A stretch of 64,000 nt of DNA, taken from assembly GCA_023227965.1 (NCBI GenBank), contig JALOCA010000001.1, positions 3,490 through 67,489 on the forward strand, written 5' to 3'. Below the pieces are notes generated by a model. The model was not told the DNA's origin. It did not search any database and saw only the letters and a list, made by a program, of their open reading frames with translations. Position 1 is the stretch's first letter, and each line of letters starts with the position of its first letter. Shown one piece after another: positions 12,770 to 40,968 of the stretch. Origin of the DNA: Lentimicrobiaceae bacterium. Lineage in GTDB: Bacteria; Bacteroidota; Bacteroidia; Bacteroidales; JALOCA01. Made by a program: the position numbers and the translations under genes.

Positions 12770-13897
12770 TTACCGGTAAACCCATCCGATGAGCCTTCCG
12801 GCATTCTTTTCGTTGGAATATTTTGCTCCAAGCAACTTTTCCCTTTTGGCTATTTCTGAATTATCAAATTCTTTGGCAAACAGTATTTCCAGCTTTTCAA
12901 GCATTTGTGCACCGGTTTCTGCAAGGTAACACAGCGAACTCAGCCCGGTTCCGGAAATCATAGCGGCGTTTACCAGCACGAACCGCCCATTGTAGAGAGT
13001 GTTCAATAGCTTAAGTTTTAAGCCTGTAGCCTGGAAAGTTATCAGGATATTTATATGAGCATCCTTTATCAATGTAAACATGGTTTCATCTGTAGGATTG
13101 GCAACCATTTGAACATTAGAATGTCTGGCTGCTAATTTTTGTAAAAATTCCGGGGGATTTAGACCAGCTACAATAAAAGGGATGGAAGTATTGGCAAAAA
13201 CATTTTTAATAAGAAAAGTAACCGCCCTATAATTTTCGGAAACGGTAAGGTTTCCATGGTACAGGACATATTTTCCTTTTCCAGGTATGTTGTTAAACTG
13301 TTCATTGGGGTGAAAACTGGGAAGATGCTCGACTTGTGAACCGGGAAATTTCTTTCGAAGGTACATCGTATCGTTTTCGGATACGGCGAGCATCAAGCAG
13401 GCATGGCGGAGTGTTTTCTGGTATAATCTTAATTTAATGCTTTCTGTAATTAAAAATAGTTTCTTGATCGCATTTTTTTCTGCCTTGAACAAATAGTAAT
13501 AGTAAATATGTTCTATGTTACTTTCCCTGTAAATTTTTTTTCTTTTTTGCAGTAAAGGATGGCTTATAAAAAAGCAGGAGTGCATTCCCTCGAAAAGTAT
13601 CGGGTGATCGTCTTTAAGTAAATTATTTAACAATGCATCTGATAATCTACTGTTTACGATATAGGGGCGATAATGGAAAGCCGTAAAAACTGAGGTGTTT
13701 CGTGGATAATAATACAACTTGTAGCACCAGTCATTCAATTCTTCGGAATGTGTACGATCATAGGAGAAACAATGCAAAATGGTTTTAACCCCAGCAGCTT
13801 TGAGGGCTTTTAGTTTGTAAAATACATCAATCACTCCTCCGTAATTAGCGGGGTAAGGTATGGTAAATGAAACAATATGTAAGTAAGTATCTTCCAC
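12770..13897 (-). CDS. Glycosyltransferase (GT1/GT4-like)
   Basis: The N-terminus IVSFTIPYPANYGGVIDVFYKLKALKAAGV is characteristic of a Bacteroidota GT-B family. The gene overlaps the upstream GT gene by 1 nt, suggesting an operon. Confidence 0.65.
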   Translation of the reverse strand: MEDTYLHIVSFTIPYPANYGGVIDVFYKLKALKAAGVKTILHCFSYDRTHSEELNDWCYKLYYYPRNTSVFTAFHYRPYIVNSRLSDALLNNLLKDDHPILFEGMHSCFFISHPLLQKRKKIYRESNIEHIYYYYLFKAEKNAIKKLFLITESIKLRLYQKTLRHACLMLAVSENDTMYLRKKFPGSQVEHLPSFHPNEQFNNIPGKGKYVLYHGNLTVSENYRAVTFLIKNVFANTSIPFIVAGLNPPEFLQKLAARHSNVQMVANPTDETMFTLIKDAHINILITFQATGLKLKLLNTLYNGRFVLVNAAMISGTGLSSLCYLAETGAQMLEKLEILFAKEFDNSEIAKREKLLGAKYSNEKNAGRLIGWVYR

Positions 13898-15103: not shown

Positions 15104-17113
15104 ATGAAGAAACTTAACAGCCTGGTTGTATTTGTCGCCCGGAACCGGAAACTTATTTTTAAAACATTAAAAATTGGTCTGTTGGTTGTTGCCTGCTTAT
15201 TCATTTTCCTGTTTATTTTTCGGAATCCGCTGATACGTTTTGTTGCGGAACGAAAGATAAATTCCTTTAACAAACGGTATAATGCCGAACTTATGGTGGG
15301 TAAGATGGAATGGAAACTACTTTCACAGTTCGAATTGCAAAATATCAGTTTACGTCCACTTCATGGCGATACTTTATTAAAAATTAAACACCTCCAATTT
15401 CGATTAAGTGTGTGGAAGCTACTGCTTGGCAGGATAGCTTTCCATAAATTTGAAATGGAAGATACTTATCTTACCCTGATAAGGCACGATTCCATTACCA
15501 ATTATTCCTTTCTATTGGGTAAGCCTAAAAAAGCAGATACAACGAAAAAATTTATTCCCGCCAGAAATTATGACCTGCGGTTTTACCGGCTTTTTGAAGC
15601 TGCTTTTGATAAGATTCCTTCGACAATGAAAATAAAAAATTTCAATGTGTCGTCAGTTGTGGGTAATTACGAAGTGAGTTTGCAGGTTGAAAATTTTTCG
15701 ATCAACAACAGGATGTTTAAAGTTCCGGTTTGGGTAAGGGAGGAAGGCTACCAAAGCCGGTGGATTGTTGAGGGAAAGTTGGATGCAGGCGAAAGAATTG
15801 CTCATTTTAAATGGTACAGTTTGGGTGCCGGCAAGGTGGTAATACCTTATCTGCAGCATAAATGGAAAGCCGAAGTGGCTTTTGACACCCTTGAATTCAT
15901 GCTTACTGAAAAAAAGTATAGTAATCATATTTTTACTTTTGAAAATACTTCCTCAGTAAAAGGACTTGAGATTTTGAACGATCGCATTTCCACCGAAAAG
16001 GTATTTTTTCAGCATATGTCGCTTAGCGGGATAGTGAATGTGGGGAAAAATTATTTTGAACTGGACAGCGCAACCCATGTTATTTTTAACCAACTGAATT
16101 TTAATCCTTATATTAAGTTACAATTACAACCTACCCGGCAAATTACCCTTAAAATTCACAAAAAGGAGTTTCCCGCTCAGGATTTGTTTTCTTCCTTGCC
16201 CAGGGGGCTTTTTACTAACCTGGAAGGCATACGCACCTCGGGAGGTTTGTCGTATAACCTTGATTTTTTTGTTGATTTAACCCAGCCGGATTCCGTTATT
16301 TTCAATTCGGCACTCAACCGACATGATTTTCATATTGAAAGTTTTGGTAACACTAATTTTACATATATCAACTCTTCTTTTCCCTATACGGCATATGAAA
16401 GGGGAGTACCTGTAAAAACTTTTGCCGTAGGTGCTGAAAACCCCGAATTTCGTACACTGGATCAGATGCCTTCTTACCTGAAAGATGCCGTTATGCTGTC
16501 GGAAGATGGTGAATTTTATTACCACAGGGGCTTTATTCCCGATGCTATCCGCAAATCTATCGCTACCAATATCAAACAAAAACGTTTTGCCCGCGGAGGT
16601 AGCACTATTTCCATGCAATTGGTGAAAAATGTATTTCTAACCCGTAATAAAACCATTGTCCGAAAAGTTGAGGAAGCTTTAATTGTTTGGCTGATAGAAA
16701 ATAACGGATTATGTCTGAAGGACAGAATGTTTGAGGTATATCTCAATATTATTGAATGGGGTCCCCTGATTTATGGCGCACAGGAAGCCGCACAGTATTA
16801 TTTCAATAAAGACGTCGGACAACTTACGCTTTCGGAAGCCATTTACCTGGCTGCCATTATTCCGAGACCCAAATCGTTTAAATATACTTTTGATGAGTTC
16901 GGGCACCTTAAGGAATACCTGCAGGGTTATTATAAGTTGCTTTCCGGTAAAATGCTGCGAAGAGAGATGATTACACAGCAGGAGCATGACGAACTTGTTC
17001 CCGATGTTGAGCTTACCGGGCCTGCAAAATTAATACTTCTGCCGGCTGATAGTCTTGCCCCGGTTAATGACTCTCTTCGGTTCGAAATTAATTATTCAGG
17101 CGACGAATTTTAA
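15104..17113 (+). CDS. Monofunctional peptidoglycan glycosyltransferase (GT51) with long N-terminal membrane-anchored domain
   Basis: GT51 motifs in the C-terminal third: SEDGEFYYHRGF, RGGSTISMQLVKN and RKVEEALIVWLIE. There is an N-terminal TM helix and no transpeptidase domain. Confidence 0.8.
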   Translation: MKKLNSLVVFVARNRKLIFKTLKIGLLVVACLFIFLFIFRNPLIRFVAERKINSFNKRYNAELMVGKMEWKLLSQFELQNISLRPLHGDTLLKIKHLQFRLSVWKLLLGRIAFHKFEMEDTYLTLIRHDSITNYSFLLGKPKKADTTKKFIPARNYDLRFYRLFEAAFDKIPSTMKIKNFNVSSVVGNYEVSLQVENFSINNRMFKVPVWVREEGYQSRWIVEGKLDAGERIAHFKWYSLGAGKVVIPYLQHKWKAEVAFDTLEFMLTEKKYSNHIFTFENTSSVKGLEILNDRISTEKVFFQHMSLSGIVNVGKNYFELDSATHVIFNQLNFNPYIKLQLQPTRQITLKIHKKEFPAQDLFSSLPRGLFTNLEGIRTSGGLSYNLDFFVDLTQPDSVIFNSALNRHDFHIESFGNTNFTYINSSFPYTAYERGVPVKTFAVGAENPEFRTLDQMPSYLKDAVMLSEDGEFYYHRGFIPDAIRKSIATNIKQKRFARGGSTISMQLVKNVFLTRNKTIVRKVEEALIVWLIENNGLCLKDRMFEVYLNIIEWGPLIYGAQEAAQYYFNKDVGQLTLSEAIYLAAIIPRPKSFKYTFDEFGHLKEYLQGYYKLLSGKMLRREMITQQEHDELVPDVELTGPAKLILLPADSLAPVNDSLRFEINYSGDEF

Positions 17114-17813: not shown

Positions 17814-18551
17814 TTACAAACCTTTACTTTTTTCGTTTATTTTTGATTCAATTTCTTTGAGCTGCTCAAACTTACCCACATCAAAAAAATCGTCGCCTGT
17901 ATGGTCGTAAAGGCGGATAGAATAATCTTCGGCAAGACGTAAGTATGTATCAATAATTGAAAAAGTTCCGGTTTCGCTAATCAATGGAAAAATCGCAGGA
18001 GAAAGTACGTGGATACCGCTGAAAGCTAATTTTTTAATAACCGGACTCTTGGAAGTAATTGTTTTTATATGATGATTACGTACGTTTTCCCATCCACACA
18101 ACTCGCCGTTGGCATTTGAATGAAAATACCTTGAAGAAATGCGTTGCTGAACGGCAAGGGTGGCAATCGGGCTATGTTTTACGTGAAAATCTATGAGTTT
18201 ATCTAAGTTTATAGATGTTATTATATCAACATTGTGAAGTATGAAAGGTTCGTTGCCAGTGAAAAACCATGAGGCATTGAGTAAACCTCCGCCAGTATCA
18301 AGCAACTGGTTTCGCTCATCGGAAATGGCAATCTGCACTCCCGGAAATTTTTTGTTTTCGATAAACTCAATAACCTGTTTGCCAAAATGGTGTATGTTTA
18401 TAATAATTGCATCCACCCCATAATTTGCCAGGTTGAGAATGGCACGTTCGAGCAGGCTAATGCCTCCGATTTCTATCAGGGCTTTGGGTTTGGTAAGGGT
18501 AAGCGGTTGCAGGCGTGTACCCAGACCGGCAGCAAGGAGCATGGCTTTCAT
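17814..18551 (-). CDS. Sugar-1-phosphate nucleotidyltransferase, MurU-like
   Basis: The N-terminus MKAMLLAAGLGTRLQPLTLTKPKALIEIGG is the NTP-transferase G-rich loop. Length is 245 aa, and the gene is co-oriented two genes downstream of an AmgK-like kinase. Confidence 0.7.
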   Translation of the reverse strand: MKAMLLAAGLGTRLQPLTLTKPKALIEIGGISLLERAILNLANYGVDAIIINIHHFGKQVIEFIENKKFPGVQIAISDERNQLLDTGGGLLNASWFFTGNEPFILHNVDIITSINLDKLIDFHVKHSPIATLAVQQRISSRYFHSNANGELCGWENVRNHHIKTITSKSPVIKKLAFSGIHVLSPAIFPLISETGTFSIIDTYLRLAEDYSIRLYDHTGDDFFDVGKFEQLKEIESKINEKSKGL

Positions 18552-18574
18552 GAGGTTGCTAATTATTAATCAGG

Positions 18575-18937
18575 TTATTGCTTGTTTGAATTTTGCTGGC
18601 TGAAATACATACGGGTTACAACTTTTTGCATTTCACGACGGATGATAAGTTCAGCCATTATTTCGTGTTTTTGGAAATCCGGAAAGTTTTTTTCTGCTTC
18701 TGAAAATGCGTTTTCATCCACATCAATCTGGTAAAGCAGTGACATCACCCTTCCGAAATCGCAGGCGACCAAATTGGCAAGTTGCATGCAAAGCTGTTGG
18801 TAAAGCTCGGAGTATGCAAAATATGTTTCGCCTGCAAAATGTATTTCAAGATCATATTTTCCAAAATCTTTCTGAATCTGCAGGGCAGTATCCCACATAA
18901 TTTTTTGGTTTATCCGGTAAGGTTCAATATCAAACAT
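18575..18937 (-). CDS. Hypothetical protein (120 aa) between the kinase and the nucleotidyltransferase
   Basis: A clean ORF fills the gap in the same-strand operon (23-nt and 45-nt spacers). I recognise no motif. Confidence 0.45.
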   Translation of the reverse strand: MFDIEPYRINQKIMWDTALQIQKDFGKYDLEIHFAGETYFAYSELYQQLCMQLANLVACDFGRVMSLLYQIDVDENAFSEAEKNFPDFQKHEIMAELIIRREMQKVVTRMYFSQQNSNKQ

Positions 18938-18982
18938 GGTATTTAATTCATCTTTTTAACGGGCATTTTTTTGTGCAGGGTT

Positions 18983-20374
18983 TTACTCATGGTGTAAAAT
19001 TACGGTAATAGCGTATTTTTGCAAAAGGTGTATTTCGAGTTGCTTGGCACAATAAACGGAGCGATGCTGCCCGCCAGTGCAGCCAAAATTTACCATCAGA
19101 TTTTCAAACCTTCTGTGCATGTAGGCATCAATGCTTTGATCTACAATGGTAAATACATTCTGGAGAAAGTCAGTTACTTCTGGCAGCTTTTCAAGAAAGT
19201 TTATCACTGGCTGGTCGTTTCCCGTCAGGGCTTTATATTCGTCGTATCTTCCGGGGTTGGGCAATGCCCTGCAATCGAAAACGAAACCACCTCCATTACC
19301 GGTAGCATCGGCTGGAATGCCTTTTTTGTAGGAAAAACTGTTGATGTGCACTTTCAGGCTTTTGGAACCTGCTTTTTCAATATGTACGTCGCTGCTGATT
19401 TTTTCAATTATCTGACGCAAATAGGGCAGGAACAAAGGAAATTTGTCATCGCTAAGCAATTGCTGCAGGTTACGTTTGGCATAGGGCACGCTTTGCAGGA
19501 AAAGGGTTTTGCGTTCAAAAAAGCCACGAAATCCGTAACTTCCCATAGCCTGCATGATGCGGATGAGGACAAAAGCATAAAATCTCTGTTCAAACTTGTT
19601 TTCGGATATAGCCAGATGCTTGGTAAGGTGCTCAATATAAAATGCTAAAAGTTCTTTTCGCAGTCCGTCGGACAAATCGGCTTTGGCATCGTACAGTAGT
19701 GAAGCAAGGTCGTAAGGCAGTGCTCCTTTACGTCCTCCCTGATAATCAATAAAAAATAATTTATCATTTTGCACCATAATATTTCGTGATTGAAAATCGC
19801 GGTACAGGAAAAATTCTCCCGGGATTGTAAGCAGATAATTGCACAGTTTGCAAAAGTCTTCTTCAAGTAATTGTTCGTCAAAAGGGATGCCGGAGGGTTT
19901 CAGGTAATAGTATTTGAAATAATTGAGATCCCACATCATACTTTGTCTGTCGAAGGCATGACGGGGATAACACAGTGAGAAATCAAAACCACAGGCTCCT
20001 TTTATTTGAAAACCGATAAGGGCTTCGATGACTTTTTTATAGATGTCTTGTAACGTCTGCGGGTTTTTCTTCAATGTGGGAAGCAGAGAAAATAATGTTG
20101 TATCGCCCAGGTCCTGGATGAGATAAATATTTTCTTCCCGGTTATCGGCATACAGTTCCGGGACAGGCAGATTTAATTTCCGGAAATGATTTGTAAATGC
20201 TGTAAATGCAATATTTTCCTTATTGTCAGGATTGTATGCTCCGATAGCCAAAACGGTTCCTGCCGTAATACGATAATATTTCCTGTTGGAGCCTGAGGCT
20301 GGGAGCAGGGTGATGGTTTCGGCATATTGTCCGCTCCATGTATGGAATAGTTGTTGTAACTGTATTTCTTTCAC
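18983..20374 (-). CDS. Fusion protein: AmgK-like (APH-fold) amino-sugar kinase + RapZ/YvcJ C-terminal domain
   Basis: The N-terminal ~330 aa carry the catalytic loop YRDFQSRNIMV and IDYQGGRKGALPYDLASLLYD, as in anomeric MurNAc/GlcNAc kinases. The C-terminal ~125 aa (SFSYKKGIP...FVFDCRALPNPGRY...LTGNDQPVINFL...FGCTGGQHRSVYCAKQL) match the RapZ C-terminal signature (FG(F/Y)K.G.P...(V/F)D.R.LPNP...TG.D..V..(F/Y)L...IGCTGG.HRSV). Confidence 0.75.
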   Translation of the reverse strand: MKEIQLQQLFHTWSGQYAETITLLPASGSNRKYYRITAGTVLAIGAYNPDNKENIAFTAFTNHFRKLNLPVPELYADNREENIYLIQDLGDTTLFSLLPTLKKNPQTLQDIYKKVIEALIGFQIKGACGFDFSLCYPRHAFDRQSMMWDLNYFKYYYLKPSGIPFDEQLLEEDFCKLCNYLLTIPGEFFLYRDFQSRNIMVQNDKLFFIDYQGGRKGALPYDLASLLYDAKADLSDGLRKELLAFYIEHLTKHLAISENKFEQRFYAFVLIRIMQAMGSYGFRGFFERKTLFLQSVPYAKRNLQQLLSDDKFPLFLPYLRQIIEKISSDVHIEKAGSKSLKVHINSFSYKKGIPADATGNGGGFVFDCRALPNPGRYDEYKALTGNDQPVINFLEKLPEVTDFLQNVFTIVDQSIDAYMHRRFENLMVNFGCTGGQHRSVYCAKQLEIHLLQKYAITVILHHE

Positions 20375-20389
20375 CTTAAAAATGATGTT

Positions 20390-20968
20390 TTATTCCCGTA
20401 TTATGTTGTAGTTTCCATTGGAATACAAACGGATAATTTTAGATGGTTTTGTCCTGTTAATGTTGCTCTGCTGGAGGTTAACTATGTAATTCACTCCTTT
20501 TTTTATAGAATCGGAAACCTGGCTGAACAGGGCAGGAGGTGGTTCGGTGCTAAGGTTGGCAGAGGTGGAAACAATGGGTTTCCCGAAACGACGGATAAGC
20601 GACTGGCAAAATTCGTGTTTTATGATGCGGATTGCGATGGTTCCGTCTGCTGCAATAACGTTGGAGGCTAAGTTTTTTGCTCCGTCATAGACAATGGTTA
20701 AGGGCTCGTCCACCTGGTTGGTAAGATCGTAAGTAATAGAGGGCACGTGGGTGATGTAGTTTGCAAGTTTATCAAAATGGTCGAGAAGGATAATAAGGCT
20801 TTTGCTTTCGCTTCTTCTTTTAAGGCGGAAAATTCTTTCAACGGCTATGGGGTTGGTAGCATCACAGCCAATTCCCCATATGGTATCGCAAGGATAAAGC
20901 AATGTTCCACCGGTTTCAAGCACCTGAAGTGAATTGCTTACTTCGAGGTTTATTTCTTTGGTGTGCAT
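20390..20968 (-). CDS. tsaC: L-threonylcarbamoyladenylate synthase (YrdC/TsaC type)
   Basis: The YrdC domain is indicated by GGTLLYPCDTIWGIGCDA, KRRSESKSLIIL and STSANLS. The 192-aa length means there is no Sua5 C-terminal extension. Confidence 0.85.
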   Translation of the reverse strand: MHTKEINLEVSNSLQVLETGGTLLYPCDTIWGIGCDATNPIAVERIFRLKRRSESKSLIILLDHFDKLANYITHVPSITYDLTNQVDEPLTIVYDGAKNLASNVIAADGTIAIRIIKHEFCQSLIRRFGKPIVSTSANLSTEPPPALFSQVSDSIKKGVNYIVNLQQSNINRTKPSKIIRLYSNGNYNIIRE

Positions 20969-25422: not shown

Positions 25423-26239
25423 TATTTGATTGAAAAGGAACCTCCACCGTGAGACCTTTTTTTTCAGTGGTAGAAAATACGTTTTTAGCAACTTAACAGA
25501 ATTGGTAGAAATGCCCTGAAACATAGATAGCGGAAGCTGAAAAACTGGGACAATAACTTAAACCCGGATCCGTATTTAAACTTTGATAATTTGAAGTATC
25601 GTATCCTTATGGTGTAATAATTGGAAGATATTGCCAATATGATGGCACAGAAAGTTCTTCAGGCGGCACTGCTTTTTCCCAATGTAGTAAAGATGGCCTC
25701 TAAACAAGGTGTTCTGAGAGCCAAGGAAGTGTACGACAATCTCAAGCATCGTTTCTCAGATAGTAAACTTTCAGAAATTATTACCAACAATACGGAAACC
25801 AAGTAGTTGAGAAGGATAGTTTTTTAATGGGTCAATTAATGGTAATGAGGCAGTGGGCTTGGCTCTTTACTTTTTACAATATAACCATCTTATTTTTATA
25901 ACTATCCTGTCTCATTTTATATCTTATAAAGTCTATGCCTGTAGGACAAAGTTTTTTCACTATGCCTGCTTTGCATCTTTAATACAAAACATTTGCCCTA
26001 ACAGGATAAATTCATCCGCCAGGCAAGTTAAAAACCTTCAGGGTAGGTATTGTTGGCCTGATTTACCTGTATTCATAATAACATGAAAAATTATTCACAA
26101 AATTTCATGCAATACACAACTGGTCTTAATACATATTAAATTTTAACTTTGTACTTGGATTTTTCTACCCTAGAAGATTAGAATAACTGCCATAATTTAT
26201 TACTATACACTGGTTAATAAAAACTTATAACTTTATTAT

Positions 26240-28069
26240 ATGATTAAAAAATATACATTTATATTCTTGATTATAATAATAGTAATCTCATTAACAGTTT
26301 ATTTTTTAATAGAATTAAATATATCAGGGGATAATAACAAAAATTCAGTAAAAAGTAACTATAGCTATACTGTTGAAAATAAGATAATAATACTTGATAA
26401 AAATAATGAGTCATATGTATCCGGTAAAAAAGAACCATATAACAAAAAATACTATGATTCATGTTTCAGATTGTCTGTTAACTATTTTCATAAAAACCTT
26501 GATTCAGCAGAAATTATTCTTAATCGTATGTTACTACAGTCCAGGTCTGAAAATAGTAAATATGGTATGACTCTAGCATATGCCGAATTAACAATTAATA
26601 ATGCAGAAAAAGGAGAAATAAATAATGCTTATAACTGCCTTGAAAAAGGCTACCTTGCTTATGACGGACTTTGTGTACCCAAGTTATATGCTTTTTTAAA
26701 TCTATCAGAAGGTTTTTTAAACTATAAGGCAGATAATTATTATGAAGCTTGCCAAGCTATTTTCCGGGCCTATAAGATATATGAAACATTAAAAGATGAA
26801 CATTGGATGTCAAAATGTAATTCATTGTTAAGTCTGCAGTTTTATCAACTTGCAGATTATGATAACGCAATAAAATATCTCAGAAAAGTCATCAAATATG
26901 AAGAAAAAACCAAGAGTTATAGAAGTCTATGTGCAGATTATCAGAACATGGGAATGTTTATGGTGTATAATAGCTCTTACGATTCTGCTAATATATATCT
27001 TAACCGTTCTATTGCTTTACTAAAGAAAGTACCTAGTTTAATGGTTTTAGCCGCAATTTATGAAATAAAAGGAGAAATGTTTTCAAACCAAAAAAAGTTT
27101 GATTCAGCAATATATTATCTGAATAAAGCCAAAGAAATTGCATTCCAAGCCAAAGATAATTTTAGGTTTGTATCTGCATCTTATGATCTTGGAAATATAG
27201 CCCAACAAAAATCTGATTTAAATTTAGCCGGTCTTTATTACTTACAAGGTGTGGATTTTGCAAAAAAGTATGGTTTAAAAGATTTGACACTTGAAGGATA
27301 TAAGGAACTGTCTACCATTGCCTATAGATATGGAAATCTACAAAAGGCCTATGATTACAATAACAAATATCTGGAATTACGGGAAAAAGACGCAAAGGAT
27401 AAAAATGAATCTATTGCAAAGAGCCTGGAAATTCAGGAAATATATGAAAAATATCGCAAGAAAATACTGGTAGAACAACAAATTCAGCAATCACAGCTTA
27501 AAATATCCCGGAGATTTGTACTTATTCTTTGCATATTACTTATTGTTTTGATATTGTTTATTATCTATTTTGTCAAATGGGCAAAACTTCGTCATAAGCA
27601 AATAATTATGGAAAAACAGAATTTGAATGCTCAAATAGGAGTAAAGAAAAAAGAACTTTCCGTTATTCTTATGGAACAAACCAAAGATTCTGAACAAATT
27701 AATTCATTTTTAAAAGAGCTAAACGAAAAACTTGCTTCATTGCCGGAAGATAATCAAAAGAATATTTATAAATTAATTAATCAGCTTAAAAATCAGCAAG
27801 ATAAAAAAATATGGGAAGAGTTTGAAATCCGTTTTAAAAATGAAAATGAAATTTATTTTAATGCATTAAAAAATGTTTGCCCGGTCCTTACTCCTGCAGA
27901 AATAAAAATATGCCTCTTATTACGACTTAATATGTCAACAAAAGACATTGCTACCATACTTTTTAAATCAGAATCTTCTGTTGAGGTTGATCGTGCAAGA
28001 ATCAGAAAAAAATTAGGTATAACTAACCAAAATATTAGCTTAACAGATCATTTGTTAACTATAGGCTGA
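26240..28069 (+). CDS. Membrane-spanning TPR-domain transcriptional regulator with C-terminal LuxR-type HTH
   Basis: An N-terminal TM (FIFLIIIIVISLTVYFLI) is followed by ~390 aa of TPR-like repeats, a second TM (FVLILCILLIVLILFIIYFV), a coiled region and the LuxR/GerE HTH LTPAEIKICLLLRLNMSTKDIATILFKSESSVEVDRARIRKKLGI. Confidence 0.75.
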   Translation: MIKKYTFIFLIIIIVISLTVYFLIELNISGDNNKNSVKSNYSYTVENKIIILDKNNESYVSGKKEPYNKKYYDSCFRLSVNYFHKNLDSAEIILNRMLLQSRSENSKYGMTLAYAELTINNAEKGEINNAYNCLEKGYLAYDGLCVPKLYAFLNLSEGFLNYKADNYYEACQAIFRAYKIYETLKDEHWMSKCNSLLSLQFYQLADYDNAIKYLRKVIKYEEKTKSYRSLCADYQNMGMFMVYNSSYDSANIYLNRSIALLKKVPSLMVLAAIYEIKGEMFSNQKKFDSAIYYLNKAKEIAFQAKDNFRFVSASYDLGNIAQQKSDLNLAGLYYLQGVDFAKKYGLKDLTLEGYKELSTIAYRYGNLQKAYDYNNKYLELREKDAKDKNESIAKSLEIQEIYEKYRKKILVEQQIQQSQLKISRRFVLILCILLIVLILFIIYFVKWAKLRHKQIIMEKQNLNAQIGVKKKELSVILMEQTKDSEQINSFLKELNEKLASLPEDNQKNIYKLINQLKNQQDKKIWEEFEIRFKNENEIYFNALKNVCPVLTPAEIKICLLLRLNMSTKDIATILFKSESSVEVDRARIRKKLGITNQNISLTDHLLTIG

Positions 28070-28460
28070 TTCGTAGATCTTCCTACTGAAATTACACTAA
28101 TAAGCTATTTATTGTTGTATGTCTGCCCATTGCTATGGCACTCAATCAATAATAAATACTTAGTTATATGGTATTTATAAAATCAAAAAATTTTATTTGC
28201 TAAGGTGCTTATATATGTGTTTTGCTATGTATGTGCTAAGTTCAAATAATTCCATATTTAAATAATTCCAAATATTTTTGGTTTTCGATTTAAATTCTGA
28301 AATGAATCATTTTAATAATGATGAATTTTATTAAAAATATTAATAGATTATGAAATATTACCGATATTCGTTACAAAACTTTATCTGCATAAGAGGCCCA
28401 TGCCATTATATAATTTTTAATCATAACAAGTTTTATTAATTATTTAAATAACATATACAT

Positions 28461-30671
28461 ATGAAATATTTTTTTTATCTTGGTATTAATATTATAATAT
28501 TTTTTTTATTATGCTTATATGGGCCAGCATTAAAAGCCCAAACATATACAGAAACTAATGATTTAACCGGAAATACTACTTTATTTCTAAAAAAATCAAA
28601 TGGTAAAGTCGCCCAGGCTAACTTTTTTAACAACCATAGTGTTTCAAATATATCTGTTGATGGCTATAAAAAATGTAATGATAATTCTTATAAACTAAAT
28701 AGTGTAAAAAGCAGTAAAGAATCATATATAGTTAAATTAAGCTGTGATTTCTTTCCTAAAAGTAACGCATTAACAAGTAGTGAAGGTACATACTATTTTG
28801 ACAGATGGAATTTTGACACATTATTTTTTTCGGAAACCGTATTACCGGAAGGTATTTATGATATTGTTTTACAATCTTCCAGTCCTGTATTTGCAAACAT
28901 TATTTTACATAATTTTATAATTGACAGAAACATTGATACAATTTTATACTTCAACAACTATGCTACTGATACAATTTTTTTTGAAGGACGAGATGAAAAC
29001 AATCAACCATTGATATCACTTGATAATAATGATTTTATTTTTATCCTTGAGTTTCCTCAAAATTTAAATCAAGAATGGTTAGCCATGTCTTATAATGATT
29101 ATCCGTTAAATTATATACTTGCATCTGAAACAGATTCGCAATATAACTTAAAATGTGGCCAAGTAATAATAAACGACGAAAAAGTTTATCTTATGTCTTT
29201 CCCAAAACTACAGGGAATTTCAGCAGATACTATTTTAATAAACGATCCTGATTCTTATAATATTGCTAATTATGTTCTCAGACCTTCCCCCGCTGCCAGT
29301 GATATGTATATTAATACTATGACTGGATGGCTTTTTAAAGAAGAAGATGGAAGTCCTGCTTCCATTGGACTTCGTGATGATACCCAGACCGGATTTGTTT
29401 ATAATGGTTCAGATACAATAAAAATGTATTTAAATAATAACATCAATGAAGAAGACCGTTGCTCGATGGGAGGCGGTTTTACGTTTTGGGAAGATATTGA
29501 TGATTATGATCATTGGATGATGGTAACGCCTCAGCATAATTATGTTTACGAGGGAAATTCGGTTGCATTGAGTAATTTTTATCCTCCATTTCCGGCTGAT
29601 TATGTATCTCAGAATAATGATTTAAGGAAATTAGGCTTTAATGCCCCTTTTATCTCTGTAAGCGGATTGAATAACCTCTCTGGAAATTATATGATACTTC
29701 CTGATATTGAGTTTAAAGGACAGTATGGAGAACAACGAAAAACGGACATCTACAGGAGTACTTATTCTTTATTACATAACGACCAAATAATTATCAATGA
29801 TACTGCCTTTAAATTTGAGCCATATTTCCCTTCAGAAGGAGGAATTTATACCTTAAACATTGAAAACACAAATTATGTTCTTGACAAAATGGCTGGTAAT
29901 ATATCACTTCGAATGGATTTTAATCTAGATATGCCGGATGCAAATTCTCCGAAATTTACCTCTTTTAAAATATTGACAGAAGATCATAAAATTAGTGAAT
30001 TACTGACATCTGGAAAATATGCCACAATGGAATTTACGATTTCTGACTTTCCTTTACCATCTGGAGGAGGTGATGCTAAAAAAGCAACAAATAAAAATTT
30101 AAATAATGATTCAAAATTACGGATTAAAGAGGGAATAAATTCAGTTCATTCTTATTATAAATCGTATAATTCCATAGAATGGATAGAGCTACCTTTAATT
30201 GAACAACATTCTTTATTCGATTCATTAGTTTATGGTAATTATTTTGTAAGCAATCTTAGCCAAGCCATCGCAAACGTTACAGACTCTGTTTTTTTCGATA
30301 TAAAGATTGAAGCAATAGATTCTTCTGGCAATGCCTCTGCTCAGATCTGGCACCCTGCATTTTTAGTAAAACCAGATGGTGTAGGGATCAATGAAAATAA
30401 AATCCATAACGGAGAAACGACATTACAAATTTATCCTAACCCTGTGAACGATAACAGCATTATATCTTTTAATCTTACACAAAACTTAAACGTAAAGCTT
30501 TCGGTTTATAACATCAACGGACAATTAACAGATGTTTTGCTGGAAAAAACGATGGAAAAAGGAAATCATCAGATAAACTGGAATGCTACAGAAAAACTAA
30601 CGCCAGGTGTTTACCTGTTGAAATTAGAAACCGGGAGCACCGTAGAGACTACTAAAGTGATAGTTAGGTAA
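28461..30671 (+). CDS. Hypothetical secreted protein with T9SS type-A C-terminal sorting domain (736 aa)
   Basis: The signal peptide ends ...LCLYGPALKAQ. The C-terminus YPNPVNDNSIISFNL...GVYLLKLETGSTVETTKVIVR is a T9SS CTD. The body is N/D/Y/I-rich with no motif I recognise. Confidence 0.75.
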   Translation: MKYFFYLGINIIIFFLLCLYGPALKAQTYTETNDLTGNTTLFLKKSNGKVAQANFFNNHSVSNISVDGYKKCNDNSYKLNSVKSSKESYIVKLSCDFFPKSNALTSSEGTYYFDRWNFDTLFFSETVLPEGIYDIVLQSSSPVFANIILHNFIIDRNIDTILYFNNYATDTIFFEGRDENNQPLISLDNNDFIFILEFPQNLNQEWLAMSYNDYPLNYILASETDSQYNLKCGQVIINDEKVYLMSFPKLQGISADTILINDPDSYNIANYVLRPSPAASDMYINTMTGWLFKEEDGSPASIGLRDDTQTGFVYNGSDTIKMYLNNNINEEDRCSMGGGFTFWEDIDDYDHWMMVTPQHNYVYEGNSVALSNFYPPFPADYVSQNNDLRKLGFNAPFISVSGLNNLSGNYMILPDIEFKGQYGEQRKTDIYRSTYSLLHNDQIIINDTAFKFEPYFPSEGGIYTLNIENTNYVLDKMAGNISLRMDFNLDMPDANSPKFTSFKILTEDHKISELLTSGKYATMEFTISDFPLPSGGGDAKKATNKNLNNDSKLRIKEGINSVHSYYKSYNSIEWIELPLIEQHSLFDSLVYGNYFVSNLSQAIANVTDSVFFDIKIEAIDSSGNASAQIWHPAFLVKPDGVGINENKIHNGETTLQIYPNPVNDNSIISFNLTQNLNVKLSVYNINGQLTDVLLEKTMEKGNHQINWNATEKLTPGVYLLKLETGSTVETTKVIVR

Positions 30672-38882: not shown

Positions 38883-40544
38883 ATGACAAAAGAAAAAATA
38901 ATTGAGTTAGAGCAGGAAAATGCTCTGTTGAAGGAAAAATTAAAAGAATGCGCTAAAACAGTAGATGCAGTACTGCAATCAAAGCGGGAAGCTGAAAAAG
39001 CCAACCATATCAAGTCAGATTTTCTTGCCATGATGAGCCATGAGATACGAACACCCATGAACGGGGTAATCGGAATGACAAGCCTTCTGCTTGATACCAA
39101 CTTGACTTCCGAACAACGTGATTTTGTGGAAACTATACGCCTAAGCGGTGAAAGCCTGATAACAATTATTAATGAAATTCTCGACTTTTCAAAAATTGAA
39201 TCCGGAAAAATTACTTTTGAAGAAGCACCTTTCGATCTGCGCAGTTGTATTGAAGACTCTCTTGATATTTTTACTCACAACGCCATCGAAAAAAGTCTTG
39301 ACTTGTTGTATCTTATTCAACCAGAAGTTGCACATGCTTTTATAGGCGACAGAACCCGTTTACAGCAGGTGCTGGTTAACCTTATAAGTAATGCTATAAA
39401 ATTTACCGAAAAAGGTGAAGTATTCATTAAGGTAGAAAAACGTAGTGAAAAGGGTGATACACAGGAAATTCTTATTTCGGTCAAAGATACCGGTATCGGG
39501 ATACCACAGGACAAAATAGGCATTCTTTTCGATGCGTTTACACAAGCAGATGTTTCCACCACAAGAAGATACGAAGGTACAGGTTTAGGACTTGCTATTT
39601 CAAAACGCCTTATTAATCTCATGGGAGGAGATATTTGGGTTGAAAGCATTGAAAACGTAGGATCCACCTTTTTTTGTACCTTGCAATTAAAAACTACAGA
39701 ACAAAACAAGCCTCGGCTGTACGTGAAAGGAAAACATCCGGAATTGCAAAATGCAAAGGTGCTGGTTGTTGATGACAATCAAACCAACCTATTGATAATC
39801 AACATTCAACTTGAATCATGGGGAATAATTCCCACCCTTGCAGCCTCTGCCAAAGAAGCACTTTGTATCTTATCAGAAGACGAAACCTTCGATCTTGCTA
39901 TTCTCGATATGCAAATGCCGGAAATGGATGGCGTTGAACTTGCAAAATTGATGAAAAGTCAGATTCAGACACAATCTTTACCGCTCATATTGCTTACCTC
40001 GATGGGTAACCTCGACAGTATACCTAACGGAATTTTCGATGCCAAACTATCGAAACCGATACGTATGTCCACTTTATTTGATTATGTATTAAAAACTATA
40101 TCCAATTCAAAAAACAAAAAAAACAACCCACATTCATTTGAATTTAATAAATGTCTTGCTGCTATGTTACCTATAAAAATTCTCATCGCCGAAGATAATC
40201 TCATTAATCAAAAACTAGTTATTTCCTTACTTGGGAAAATGGGTTACAGGGTTGACGCCGTTTCTAATGGTAAAGAAGCCGTTGAATCGCTGAGGCGACA
40301 ACATTATGATATTGTATTCATGGATATTCAAATGCCTGAAATGAACGGTATTGACGCCACTAAAGCCATACTTGATAATTCAAACGGAAATAATCCAAAT
40401 ATAATAGCCATGACTGCAAACGTAATGCAAGGCGATAAAGAAAAATGCATCGAAGCGGGAATGGTGGATTACTTGAGTAAACCCATACGATTTAATGAAG
40501 TAGAACAAACTCTGATAAAATGGGGAAAAAAGGCAATTAATTAA
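38883..40544 (+). CDS. Hybrid sensor histidine kinase with two receiver domains and no obvious sensor domain
   Basis: The H-box is [11 protein letters not shown], the N box LISNAIKFT and the G boxes DTGIGI and [11 protein letters not shown]1 reads [10 protein letters not shown]...[14 protein letters not shown] and REC2 reads [11 protein letters not shown]...[14 protein letters not shown]...SKP. Only a ~35-aa coiled-coil precedes the H-box, and there is no TM helix. Confidence 0.85.
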
Positions 40545-40968
40545 TTAATATGTATTTTATTAATTTTAGAATATTTTTTAAATCATTATTGATTAATTTT
40601 TATTTAAAAAATAATTTTTTCAGGTATTAAGCATTTTTTTATTAATTTTATTCCATCTGAATGAAAAAATATTTTGATGGTATCTATTATAAAAAATGAA
40701 ATACAAAATCATATAATTTCTTTTTCAACAAAGCTTTACAAAGTTAAATTTTCCATTCTGTATGCTGACATATGGAATACTGATTTTGTGGAAAAAACTT
40801 TAGGGTATCTTTCATCCCCATTGCCGAAATCACCGGATTTTGGCAAAAAACATCAACCATTTATACAACAAAGAAAGGGTAAATGCAGCCATTACAATAA
40901 ACGAAAAATTATAACACAAACTGGAGAAAAATTGGTTATATTTTACCCTACCTTATAAAACTGCTATA

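Follow-up and report, generated by a model that had tools for sequence, protein, structure and literature searches.

The 64,000-nt stretch of Lentimicrobiaceae DNA analyzed here (the whole of it is hereafter called the window) carries a minus-strand gene at positions 18983-20374, with a GTG start, whose 463-residue product joins an AmgK-like sugar kinase through a short linker to a RapZ C-terminal domain. A MurU-like sugar-1-phosphate nucleotidyltransferase is encoded nearby on the same strand, and the two proteins probably belong to a salvage route for N-acetylmuramic acid (MurNAc) of the AmgK/MurU type. More tentatively, we favor the fuller reading that the RapZ-type domain belongs to this route as a third, integral module and serves as its metabolite sensor.

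A preliminary description of this locus, prepared from the DNA letters and their translations, had proposed that a RapZ C-terminal domain is fused here to a kinase with the aminoglycoside phosphotransferase (APH) fold. This proposal is borne out by Pfam, NCBIfam, and structure superposition, all of which agree far beyond chance. The C-terminal domain (CTD) occupies residues 338-463 (positions 18986-19363; minus strand, as for the other parts of this locus), and Pfam model PF22740 matches residues 340-461 with an E-value of 1.2e-33 and a score of 116 bits, the model's cut-off being 27. The same part of the protein matches positions 143-272 of the 278-position NCBIfam RapZ model (E 1.3e-31). An AlphaFold2 model of residues 338-463 alone has a predicted local distance difference test score (pLDDT) of 95.4. 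When compared by Foldseek with the CTD of Escherichia coli RapZ (5o5s, 5o5q, and 8b0i/j), this model yields template modeling (TM) scores of 0.84-0.89, a root-mean-square deviation of 1.4-1.9 Å, and 35% identity. The motifs quoted earlier (YRDFQSRN, FIDYQG, FVFDCRALPNPGR, LTGNDQPV, and GCTGGQHRS) are all present in the 463-residue translation, and the three minus-strand open reading frames (ORFs) of 463, 120, and 245 residues lie where they had been placed.

The phosphate-binding loop GCTGGQHRS (C432-x5-R438-S439; positions 19058-19084), located by residue mapping to E. coli RapZ, supplies the equivalents of C247, T248, G249, H252, R253, and S254 of that protein. All of these are kept in 56 of 56 family members except R253, which is kept in 55 of the 56. 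The equivalents of E. coli D182, R184, N188, and P189 (here D367, R369, N373, and P374) are also invariant in the fusion family. At the position of E. coli H190 the family has an invariant Gly, and the other pocket residues are all conserved. The E. coli pocket has been seen occupied by sulfate or malonate, held by backbone amides and Arg (PMC5737377). The role of its residues has been described (PMC5737377; PMC9841335), and RNA phosphate is also bound there, as presumably is glucosamine-6-phosphate. By itself, the E. coli CTD binds glucosamine-6-phosphate (GlcN6P) with a KD of about 10 nM and releases RNA in response, and it dimerizes on its own with D182 as the interface Asp (PMC7073468). 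The C247S variant of E. coli RapZ is inactive, and the authors of that work suspect a catalytic thiol and report that the pocket contained GlcN6P that had been “chemically transformed” (PMC9841335).

In the protein studied here, the loop is placed between a strand (residues 425-432) and a helix (residues 438-453), which gives a C-x5-R-S signature in a strand-loop-helix setting. A Foldseek search with the domain returned nothing significant besides RapZ, since the matches to phosphofructokinase (PFK) and dual-specificity phosphatase (DUSP) structures all had E-values above 1. A phosphatase fold was considered for the domain and rejected, with the DUSP matches (E 1.9-5.9, TM 0.20-0.28) being non-significant. 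Because neither the DUSP nor the PFK matches reach significance, the likeness to phosphatases is confined to the local motif.

One feature sets the kinase-associated subfamily apart from E. coli RapZ. This is a GNGGG-type insertion, present here as ATGNGGG at residues 357-363 (positions 19286-19306), for which the pairwise alignment leaves a 5-residue gap in the E. coli protein. G359, G361, G362, and G363 are invariant among 69 homologues, and the insertion also occurs in the stand-alone domain of the Chryseobacterium type. Separately, the FDCR motif has Met in place of its Cys (FVFDMRG) in the fused homologue of a Phnomibacter species (L092, G039:C1), so that C368 is not universal, unlike the Cys of GCTGGQHRS, which is kept in every sequence examined.

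The fold shared with the RNA-binding CTD of RapZ, together with the retained equivalents of E. coli K170 and R184, might suggest a true RapZ-like RNA adaptor that controls a small RNA (sRNA) or mRNA of amino-sugar metabolism. We regard this as very improbable and close to refuted. The P-loop domain of RapZ (PF03668) was found neither in the fusion protein, nor in the source genome, nor in 201 sampled genomes of the phylum; the same search detected the domain in seven control genomes. It follows that the fusion protein is not RapZ, and the earlier statement that the P-loop domain is replaced here by a different kinase fold stands. The fused RapZ_C is the sole copy in the source genome, and Bacteroides thetaiotaomicron, included as a control, likewise has RapZ_C without RapZ_N. 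Against the full-length NCBIfam RapZ model the fusion protein scores 110.2 bits, below the cut-off of 244. Four of seven basic residues that contact RNA have been lost, with the equivalents of K194, R211, R238, and K251 being E, variable, F, and Q, respectively. The RNA-binding tail of E. coli RapZ is positively charged and 19 residues long (PMC7073468). The fusion protein ends 15 residues beyond the stretch aligned to RapZ residue 263, with a single Lys among those 15, and a counterpart of the basic tail is unlikely to judge from length and composition, the two tails not having been aligned to each other. Moreover, the circuit of GlmY/GlmZ and ribonuclease (RNase) E is enterobacterial, and no Rfam RNA family was found in the 64-kb window.

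Public databases name fused and stand-alone forms of this family “RNase adapter RapZ,” “ATP-binding protein,” “UPF0042 nucleotide-binding protein,” or “RNase adaptor protein for sRNA GlmZ degradation.” Examples include the Chloroherpeton thalassium protein WP_012499432 and the Chryseobacterium proteins of 133-146 residues. Because these proteins are without the NTPase domain, names such as “RNase adapter RapZ” are wrong or misleading and amount to systematic over-annotation.

The kinase domain comprises residues 1-333 (positions 19376-20374) and has an APH or protein-kinase-like fold, as assigned from Pfam, NCBIfam, Protein Data Bank (PDB), and fold matches. The Pfam APH model covers residues 21-249 (E 3.7e-11), and AmgK models are the sole NCBIfam kinase matches for this part of the protein (E 1.2e-15 and 2e-9). 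The earlier view that the kinase resembles AmgK, and not aminoglycoside or choline kinases, is thereby upheld. Its scores miss the AmgK equivalog cut-offs, at 57.4 bits versus 550 and 37.2 versus 500 (NF045759 and NF045698). Both by sequence and by fold, the top PDB match is 3csv, and Foldseek otherwise matches the protein to APH-family kinases that act on small molecules. The translation confirms the catalytic loop YRDFQSRN (D193 and N198; positions 19781-19804) and the FIDYQG motif with the Mg-binding D210 (positions 19736-19753), and all three of these catalytic residues are invariant across the 69 homologues. A full-length AlphaFold2 model built from the 69-sequence alignment has a pLDDT of 91.3 and a predicted TM score (pTM) of 0.70. 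Disorder is limited to the linker KAGS at residues 334-337 (positions 19364-19375), the only segment with a pLDDT below 50 and the site at which relatives are split.

The 245-residue MurU-like protein is encoded at positions 17814-18551 and was recognized through NCBIfam and PDB matches. It matches the Pfam NTP_transferase family (E 4.6e-18) and has the minimal fold with an N-terminal G-x-G-T-R loop. MurU models rank first among its NCBIfam matches (120.9 bits), with the next nucleotidyltransferase family at 74.7 bits, and in the PDB it is matched best by MurU, as seen in structures 8hhd (E 9e-23) and 4y7t (E 1.2e-21). As with the kinase, the equivalog cut-offs are missed (120.9 bits versus 250 and 95.9 versus 370). 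Because both proteins score far below these NCBI cut-offs, MurNAc is named here as their predicted substrate.

Neighborhoods were counted at 80 related loci, and a MurU-like gene lies immediately downstream from the fusion at 50 of them; in the window it is two genes downstream. The order of kinase followed by MurU spans Bacteroidota, Ignavibacteria, Calditrichota, Marinimicrobia, and Elusimicrobia. The MurU-like partner named in the preliminary description is therefore both real and conserved, as attested by NCBIfam, PDB, and these 50 loci. No other broadly conserved neighbor was found among the 80 loci.

The fusion is not special to this lineage. It proves to be the standard form across several phyla of the Fibrobacterota-Chlorobiota-Bacteroidota (FCB) group. 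A word-based homologue search gave at least 8000 clusters, and in all 120 of the clusters listed PF22740 and PF01636 occur together. When species genomes were scanned, at least 598 loci came to light, distributed over Bacteroidota, Ignavibacteria, Calditrichota, Marinimicrobia, Elusimicrobia, and other groups. Phnomibacter species and Chloroherpeton thalassium are among the named organisms that carry the fused form.

The 201 genomes form a stratified sample of the phylum. RapZ_C is present in 30 of them, each time with a close kinase orthologue. In 27 of these 30 genomes the two domains are fused (open frames of 476-530 residues), and in the other three they are split exactly at the linker. 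One split has a kinase ORF that ends at TAA with an ATG 4 nt later (G101), the second has a 60-nt spacer and a CTD with its own ATG (G027), and the third has overlapping frames (G075). A further genome, G029, has the kinase and MurU without the CTD. Chryseobacterium and Kaistella normally have the split form, with the RapZ-type gene standing between those for the kinase and MurU. A search with the domain of G027 returned 1723 clusters of 76-243 residues at E <= 0.001, and the best 120 of these are all stand-alone proteins of 133-146 residues that match PF22740 alone. These natural splits into a separate gene strengthen the earlier idea that RapZ_C is a separable module tied to amino-sugar metabolism.

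The recycling genes of the source genome, which is 98% complete, are consistent with a role for this locus in MurNAc salvage. The genome has AnmK, which converts 1,6-anhydro-MurNAc to MurNAc-6-phosphate (MurNAc-6P), as well as MurA, and MurQ was not found in it. In addition, its AnmK gene on contig C45 (40680-41765) overlaps the end of a murF-like gene (39398-40690), which suggests that recycling is coupled to precursor synthesis. A motif-based and not exhaustive screen of the source genome for phosphatases of the haloacid dehalogenase (HAD) superfamily gave none of the Gph/MupP type above the cut-off. What this screen did find was a beta-phosphoglucomutase, a YjjG nucleotidase, an HAD-IIA protein, and a Cof-type protein.

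The same combination recurs in the 201-genome sample. Among the 30 genomes of the fusion class, 25 have AnmK, 16 have MurQ, and 10 have AnmK without MurQ. The 39 genomes whose kinase is without the CTD have neither AnmK nor MurQ in any case, and hence none with AnmK alone. The 132 genomes with no such kinase include 112 with AnmK and 129 with MurQ, and only one that has AnmK without MurQ. Thus, 10 of the 11 genomes with AnmK and without MurQ carry the fusion, for which Fisher's exact test gives a p-value of about 1e-8, uncorrected for phylogeny. One family contributes 38 of the 39 kinase-only genomes, and the remaining one is G029. Because the 39 represent essentially two lineages, the correlation between AnmK and the CTD is phylogenetically weak. 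Two of the MurQ matches (G063:C1:412917-413735 and G055:C1:34952-35758) contain an in-frame TAA and are possible pseudogenes. Since G063 carries the fusion, the fusion genomes with a working MurQ may number fewer than 16.

In the Pseudomonas-type route, AnmK is followed by the 6-phosphatase MupP, then by AmgK, and then by MurU (PMC13691567). The co-occurrence pattern supports an anabolic route of this type in which the position of the MurNAc-6P phosphatase is unfilled in the source genome. The Tannerella forsythia orthologues of AmgK and MurU, when expressed in E. coli, turn MurNAc probes into peptidoglycan (PMC10941766; PMC13691567).

Together, these data lead us to a model in which the N-terminal APH-fold domain would phosphorylate free MurNAc, and probably also N-acetylglucosamine (GlcNAc), at C1. 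This activity is predicted from the association with AnmK in genomes without MurQ and from the papers on T. forsythia AmgK and MurU. The downstream MurU-like enzyme would then convert the sugar-1-phosphate to a uridine diphosphate (UDP) sugar for peptidoglycan synthesis. The RapZ-type domain would be an integral third module of this salvage route without any role as an RNase adaptor. Its Cys-x5-Arg-Ser pocket could hold an amino-sugar phosphate by the phosphate group, with GlcN6P, MurNAc-6P, and related precursors as candidate ligands. On binding such a ligand, the domain, possibly dimeric, may couple the activity of the kinase to the level of the metabolite through allosteric sensing or feedback, and in this manner would tune salvage to precursor supply. 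That the domain is a sensor rather than an enzyme seems to us possible, if a little short of probable, and the direction of the proposed regulation is likewise put forward as a prediction.

Several observations weigh against this model. An invariant Cys would not be needed for simple ligand binding, and the inactive C247S variant and transformed GlcN6P reported for E. coli RapZ (PMC9841335) add to this difficulty. In Chryseobacterium and others the RapZ-type domain has its own gene, an arrangement that enzymes or subunits show more typically than allosteric domains do. In the predicted structure, a pTM of 0.70 appears to leave the interface between kinase and CTD undefined. Given AmgK and MurU scores of 57 bits against 550 and 121 against 250, the sugar could differ from MurNAc. 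Finally, the T. forsythia AmgK of the published work might differ from the fused type. The preliminary description had suggested that the CTD couples sugar recycling to regulation. This suggestion survives as one of at least two live readings, the other being catalysis at the invariant Cys-x5-Arg-Ser loop.

If the domain is catalytic, it might be a Cys-dependent phosphatase or phosphotransferase for sugar 6-phosphates that serves the attached anomeric kinase by freeing MurNAc from the AnmK product MurNAc-6P or by handing on the phosphate. It would then be a non-HAD replacement for MupP. This proposal, which we judge somewhat unlikely, gives the invariant C432-x5-R438-S439 signature in its strand-loop-helix, and the invariant D367, R369, N373, and P374, a direct role, and it agrees with the sulfate or malonate bound by the E. 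coli loop, the dead C247S variant, and the transformed GlcN6P product. It would also account for a source genome that has AnmK, is without MurQ, and yielded no Gph/MupP-type phosphatase in the motif screen, for the fusion in 10 of the 11 genomes of this kind, and for the lack of AnmK in all 39 kinase-only genomes. The occurrence of the domain as a gene of its own between those for the kinase and MurU is also in keeping with it. However, Foldseek gives no phosphatase fold (DUSP E above 1, TM 0.2-0.28), five fusion genomes are without AnmK, and so is B. thetaiotaomicron, which has the domain too. In importers of MurNAc that possess MurK as well, dephosphorylation of MurNAc-6P would give rise to a futile cycle. 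The co-occurrence signal comes from few independent lineages, and the motif-based HAD screen could have missed a phosphatase in a source genome that does have a Cof-type sugar phosphatase. Binding of GlcN6P by E. coli RapZ-CTD at nanomolar affinity also has the look of a sensor. A bolder version of the same proposal, which we consider doubtful, is that the RapZ CTD is fundamentally a metabolic enzyme that serves amino-sugar salvage, or an obligate catalytic subunit in that process, with its Cys-x5-Arg loop replacing MupP in FCB-group bacteria. The enterobacterial roles as RNA adaptor and GlcN6P sensor would then be late re-uses of its active site.

Two further explanations seem less attractive. 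The CTD might be mainly structural, serving to dimerize the protein or as a scaffold that joins kinase and MurU (for example, for channeling of MurNAc-1-phosphate), with no specific small-molecule role. Consistent with this proposal, the E. coli CTD dimerizes alone, its interface Asp D182 is invariant here as D367, and the domain, in fused and split forms alike, is always positioned between kinase and MurU. Nevertheless, we find it unlikely because it would leave the absolute conservation of the Cys/Thr/Gly/His/Arg/Ser pocket and of the Gly-rich loop unexplained, and because G029 and one whole family operate with kinase and MurU and no such domain. Alternatively, the kinase/nucleotidyltransferase pair might activate another sugar, such as an N-acetylhexosamine for lipopolysaccharide or capsule, and resemble AmgK and MurU at the family level only. 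Scores far below the NCBIfam equivalog cut-offs for both proteins would be expected in this case, glycosyltransferases of families 9 and 4 (GT9 and GT4) are among the neighbors, and the fusion occurs in some genomes that are without AnmK. Even so, this explanation appears quite unlikely. MurU models outscore all other nucleotidyltransferase models (121 bits versus at most 75), the strong association with AnmK in genomes without MurQ points to MurNAc, and the glycosyltransferase neighbors are not conserved across the 80 loci.

The remaining parts of the locus are conserved far less widely. Between the fusion and the MurU-like gene lies a 120-residue ORF (positions 18575-18937), separated from the fusion by 45 nt and from the MurU-like ORF by 23 nt. 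It had been presented as a partner of the system, but it is present at only 6 of the 80 related loci and cannot be considered a conserved partner. No relation to Pfam, NCBIfam, or PDB entries was found for it, even with a 7-sequence profile, and a word-based search of a large protein collection gave two homologues. The 7-sequence alignment has 18 invariant residues and an LLYQID motif. To judge from these sequences, the ORF encodes a genuine small protein that is conserved within a narrow clade and stands outside the general system. The clade that has this ORF also shares a rubrerythrin gene, and in the window a rubrerythrin-like gene begins 65 nt downstream from the three-ORF group.

Upstream, a gene for a TsaC/Sua5-type threonylcarbamoyl-AMP synthase (positions 20390-20968, minus strand) is separated from the fusion by a 15-nt gap and is probably cotranscribed with it. 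This neighbor is not conserved, with a gene of this type found at none of the 80 related loci. YdcF/DUF218, YebC, rubrerythrin, and AddAB-like genes recur in subclades only. At eight loci of the Prolixibacteraceae/Draconibacterium type (L046, L053, L067, L074, L081, and others), a regulator of the YebC/PmpR family follows the fusion in place of MurU. At 10 loci the fusion has, upstream and in divergent orientation, an envelope gene of the YdcF/DUF218 (ElyC-like) type. A scan for promoters and terminators, which does not cover Bacteroidota promoters, gave counts near the shuffled expectation.

Other genes in the window were noted in passing. A 669-residue protein (positions 15104-17113, plus strand) has a peptidoglycan transglycosylase domain that is confined to residues 437-594, and its N-terminal ~430 residues are without a Pfam match. 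Its gene is divergent to a GT4 gene and lies near the salvage genes. A 375-residue ORF (positions 12770-13897, minus strand) adjoins the GT4 glycosyltransferase gene and matches no Pfam family at E <= 1e-5. The segment at positions 26000-30000 is a low-GC island (GC 0.28 versus ~0.39 elsewhere) that encodes a 609-residue protein with tetratricopeptide repeats and a LuxR/GerE domain, and a 736-residue protein with a C-terminal sorting domain of the type IX secretion system.

The copy studied here is an ordinary member of a large family, and the family appears to be experimentally unstudied. The architecture is already on record in databases, under the name “RapZ C-terminal domain-containing protein.” We found no publication that names AmgK together with RapZ, or RapZ together with CX5R, and no study of the fusion. 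Conservation of RapZ/YvcJ proteins extends to many bacteria, and the part played by the invariant Cys in their CTD pocket is an acknowledged puzzle (PMC9841335). A RapZ-type domain that stands beside an amino-sugar kinase and MurU, and that is without RNA-adaptor features, offers a clean system for learning what this domain binds or catalyzes. Its cultured hosts include Chryseobacterium, Phnomibacter, Chloroherpeton, and Bacteroides. Establishing its role would complete the map of peptidoglycan recycling in Bacteroidota, including the MurNAc-6P phosphatase step in genomes that have AnmK and are without MurQ. The system also has practical relevance, because T. forsythia AmgK and MurU are tools for metabolic cell-wall labeling, and AmgK and MurU are discussed as targets for fosfomycin potentiation.

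The kinase-RapZ_C system is a variant of the AmgK/MurU pathway. An APH-fold anomeric sugar kinase is encoded beside a minimal sugar-1-phosphate uridylyltransferase, as in the AmgK-MurU bypass of Pseudomonas putida and Pseudomonas aeruginosa. Work on that bypass has extended to Caulobacter and Legionella, and its Tannerella forsythia version has been put to use. The locus also resembles the Pseudomonas-type route in co-occurring with AnmK and standing in for MurQ. Unlike Pseudomonas AmgK, however, the kinase here carries, or precedes, a RapZ-type domain of ~125 residues, and the motif screen found no MupP-type HAD phosphatase in the source genome. If the domain were an enzyme, it would fill the same pathway position as MupP, the HAD-type MurNAc-6P phosphatase of Pseudomonas. 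This equivalence is purely hypothetical, and the two differ in that MupP has an unrelated fold and an HAD Asp nucleophile instead of a Cys-x5-Arg loop.

Comparison with E. coli RapZ-CTD (5o5s, 5o5o, and 8b0i) reveals a common fold (TM up to 0.89, 35% identity) with Cys247, Thr248, Gly249, His252, Arg253, and Ser254 of the loop identical, and likewise D182, R184, N188, and P189. Unlike the E. coli protein, the fusion has no P-loop N-terminal domain, carries Gly in place of H190 and an extra GNGGG loop, and has lost most of the basic residues that contact RNA. The genetic settings differ in parallel, with the fusion found in a context of sugar salvage and RapZ in operons of rpoN and the nitrogen-related phosphotransferase system (PTS-Ntr) or of glmR and whiA. 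The closest counterparts are the stand-alone RapZ_C proteins of Chryseobacterium and Kaistella, which belong to the same subfamily, with its GNGGG loop and GCTGGQHRS motif, and occupy the same position between kinase and MurU, but as a separate gene rather than as part of a fusion.

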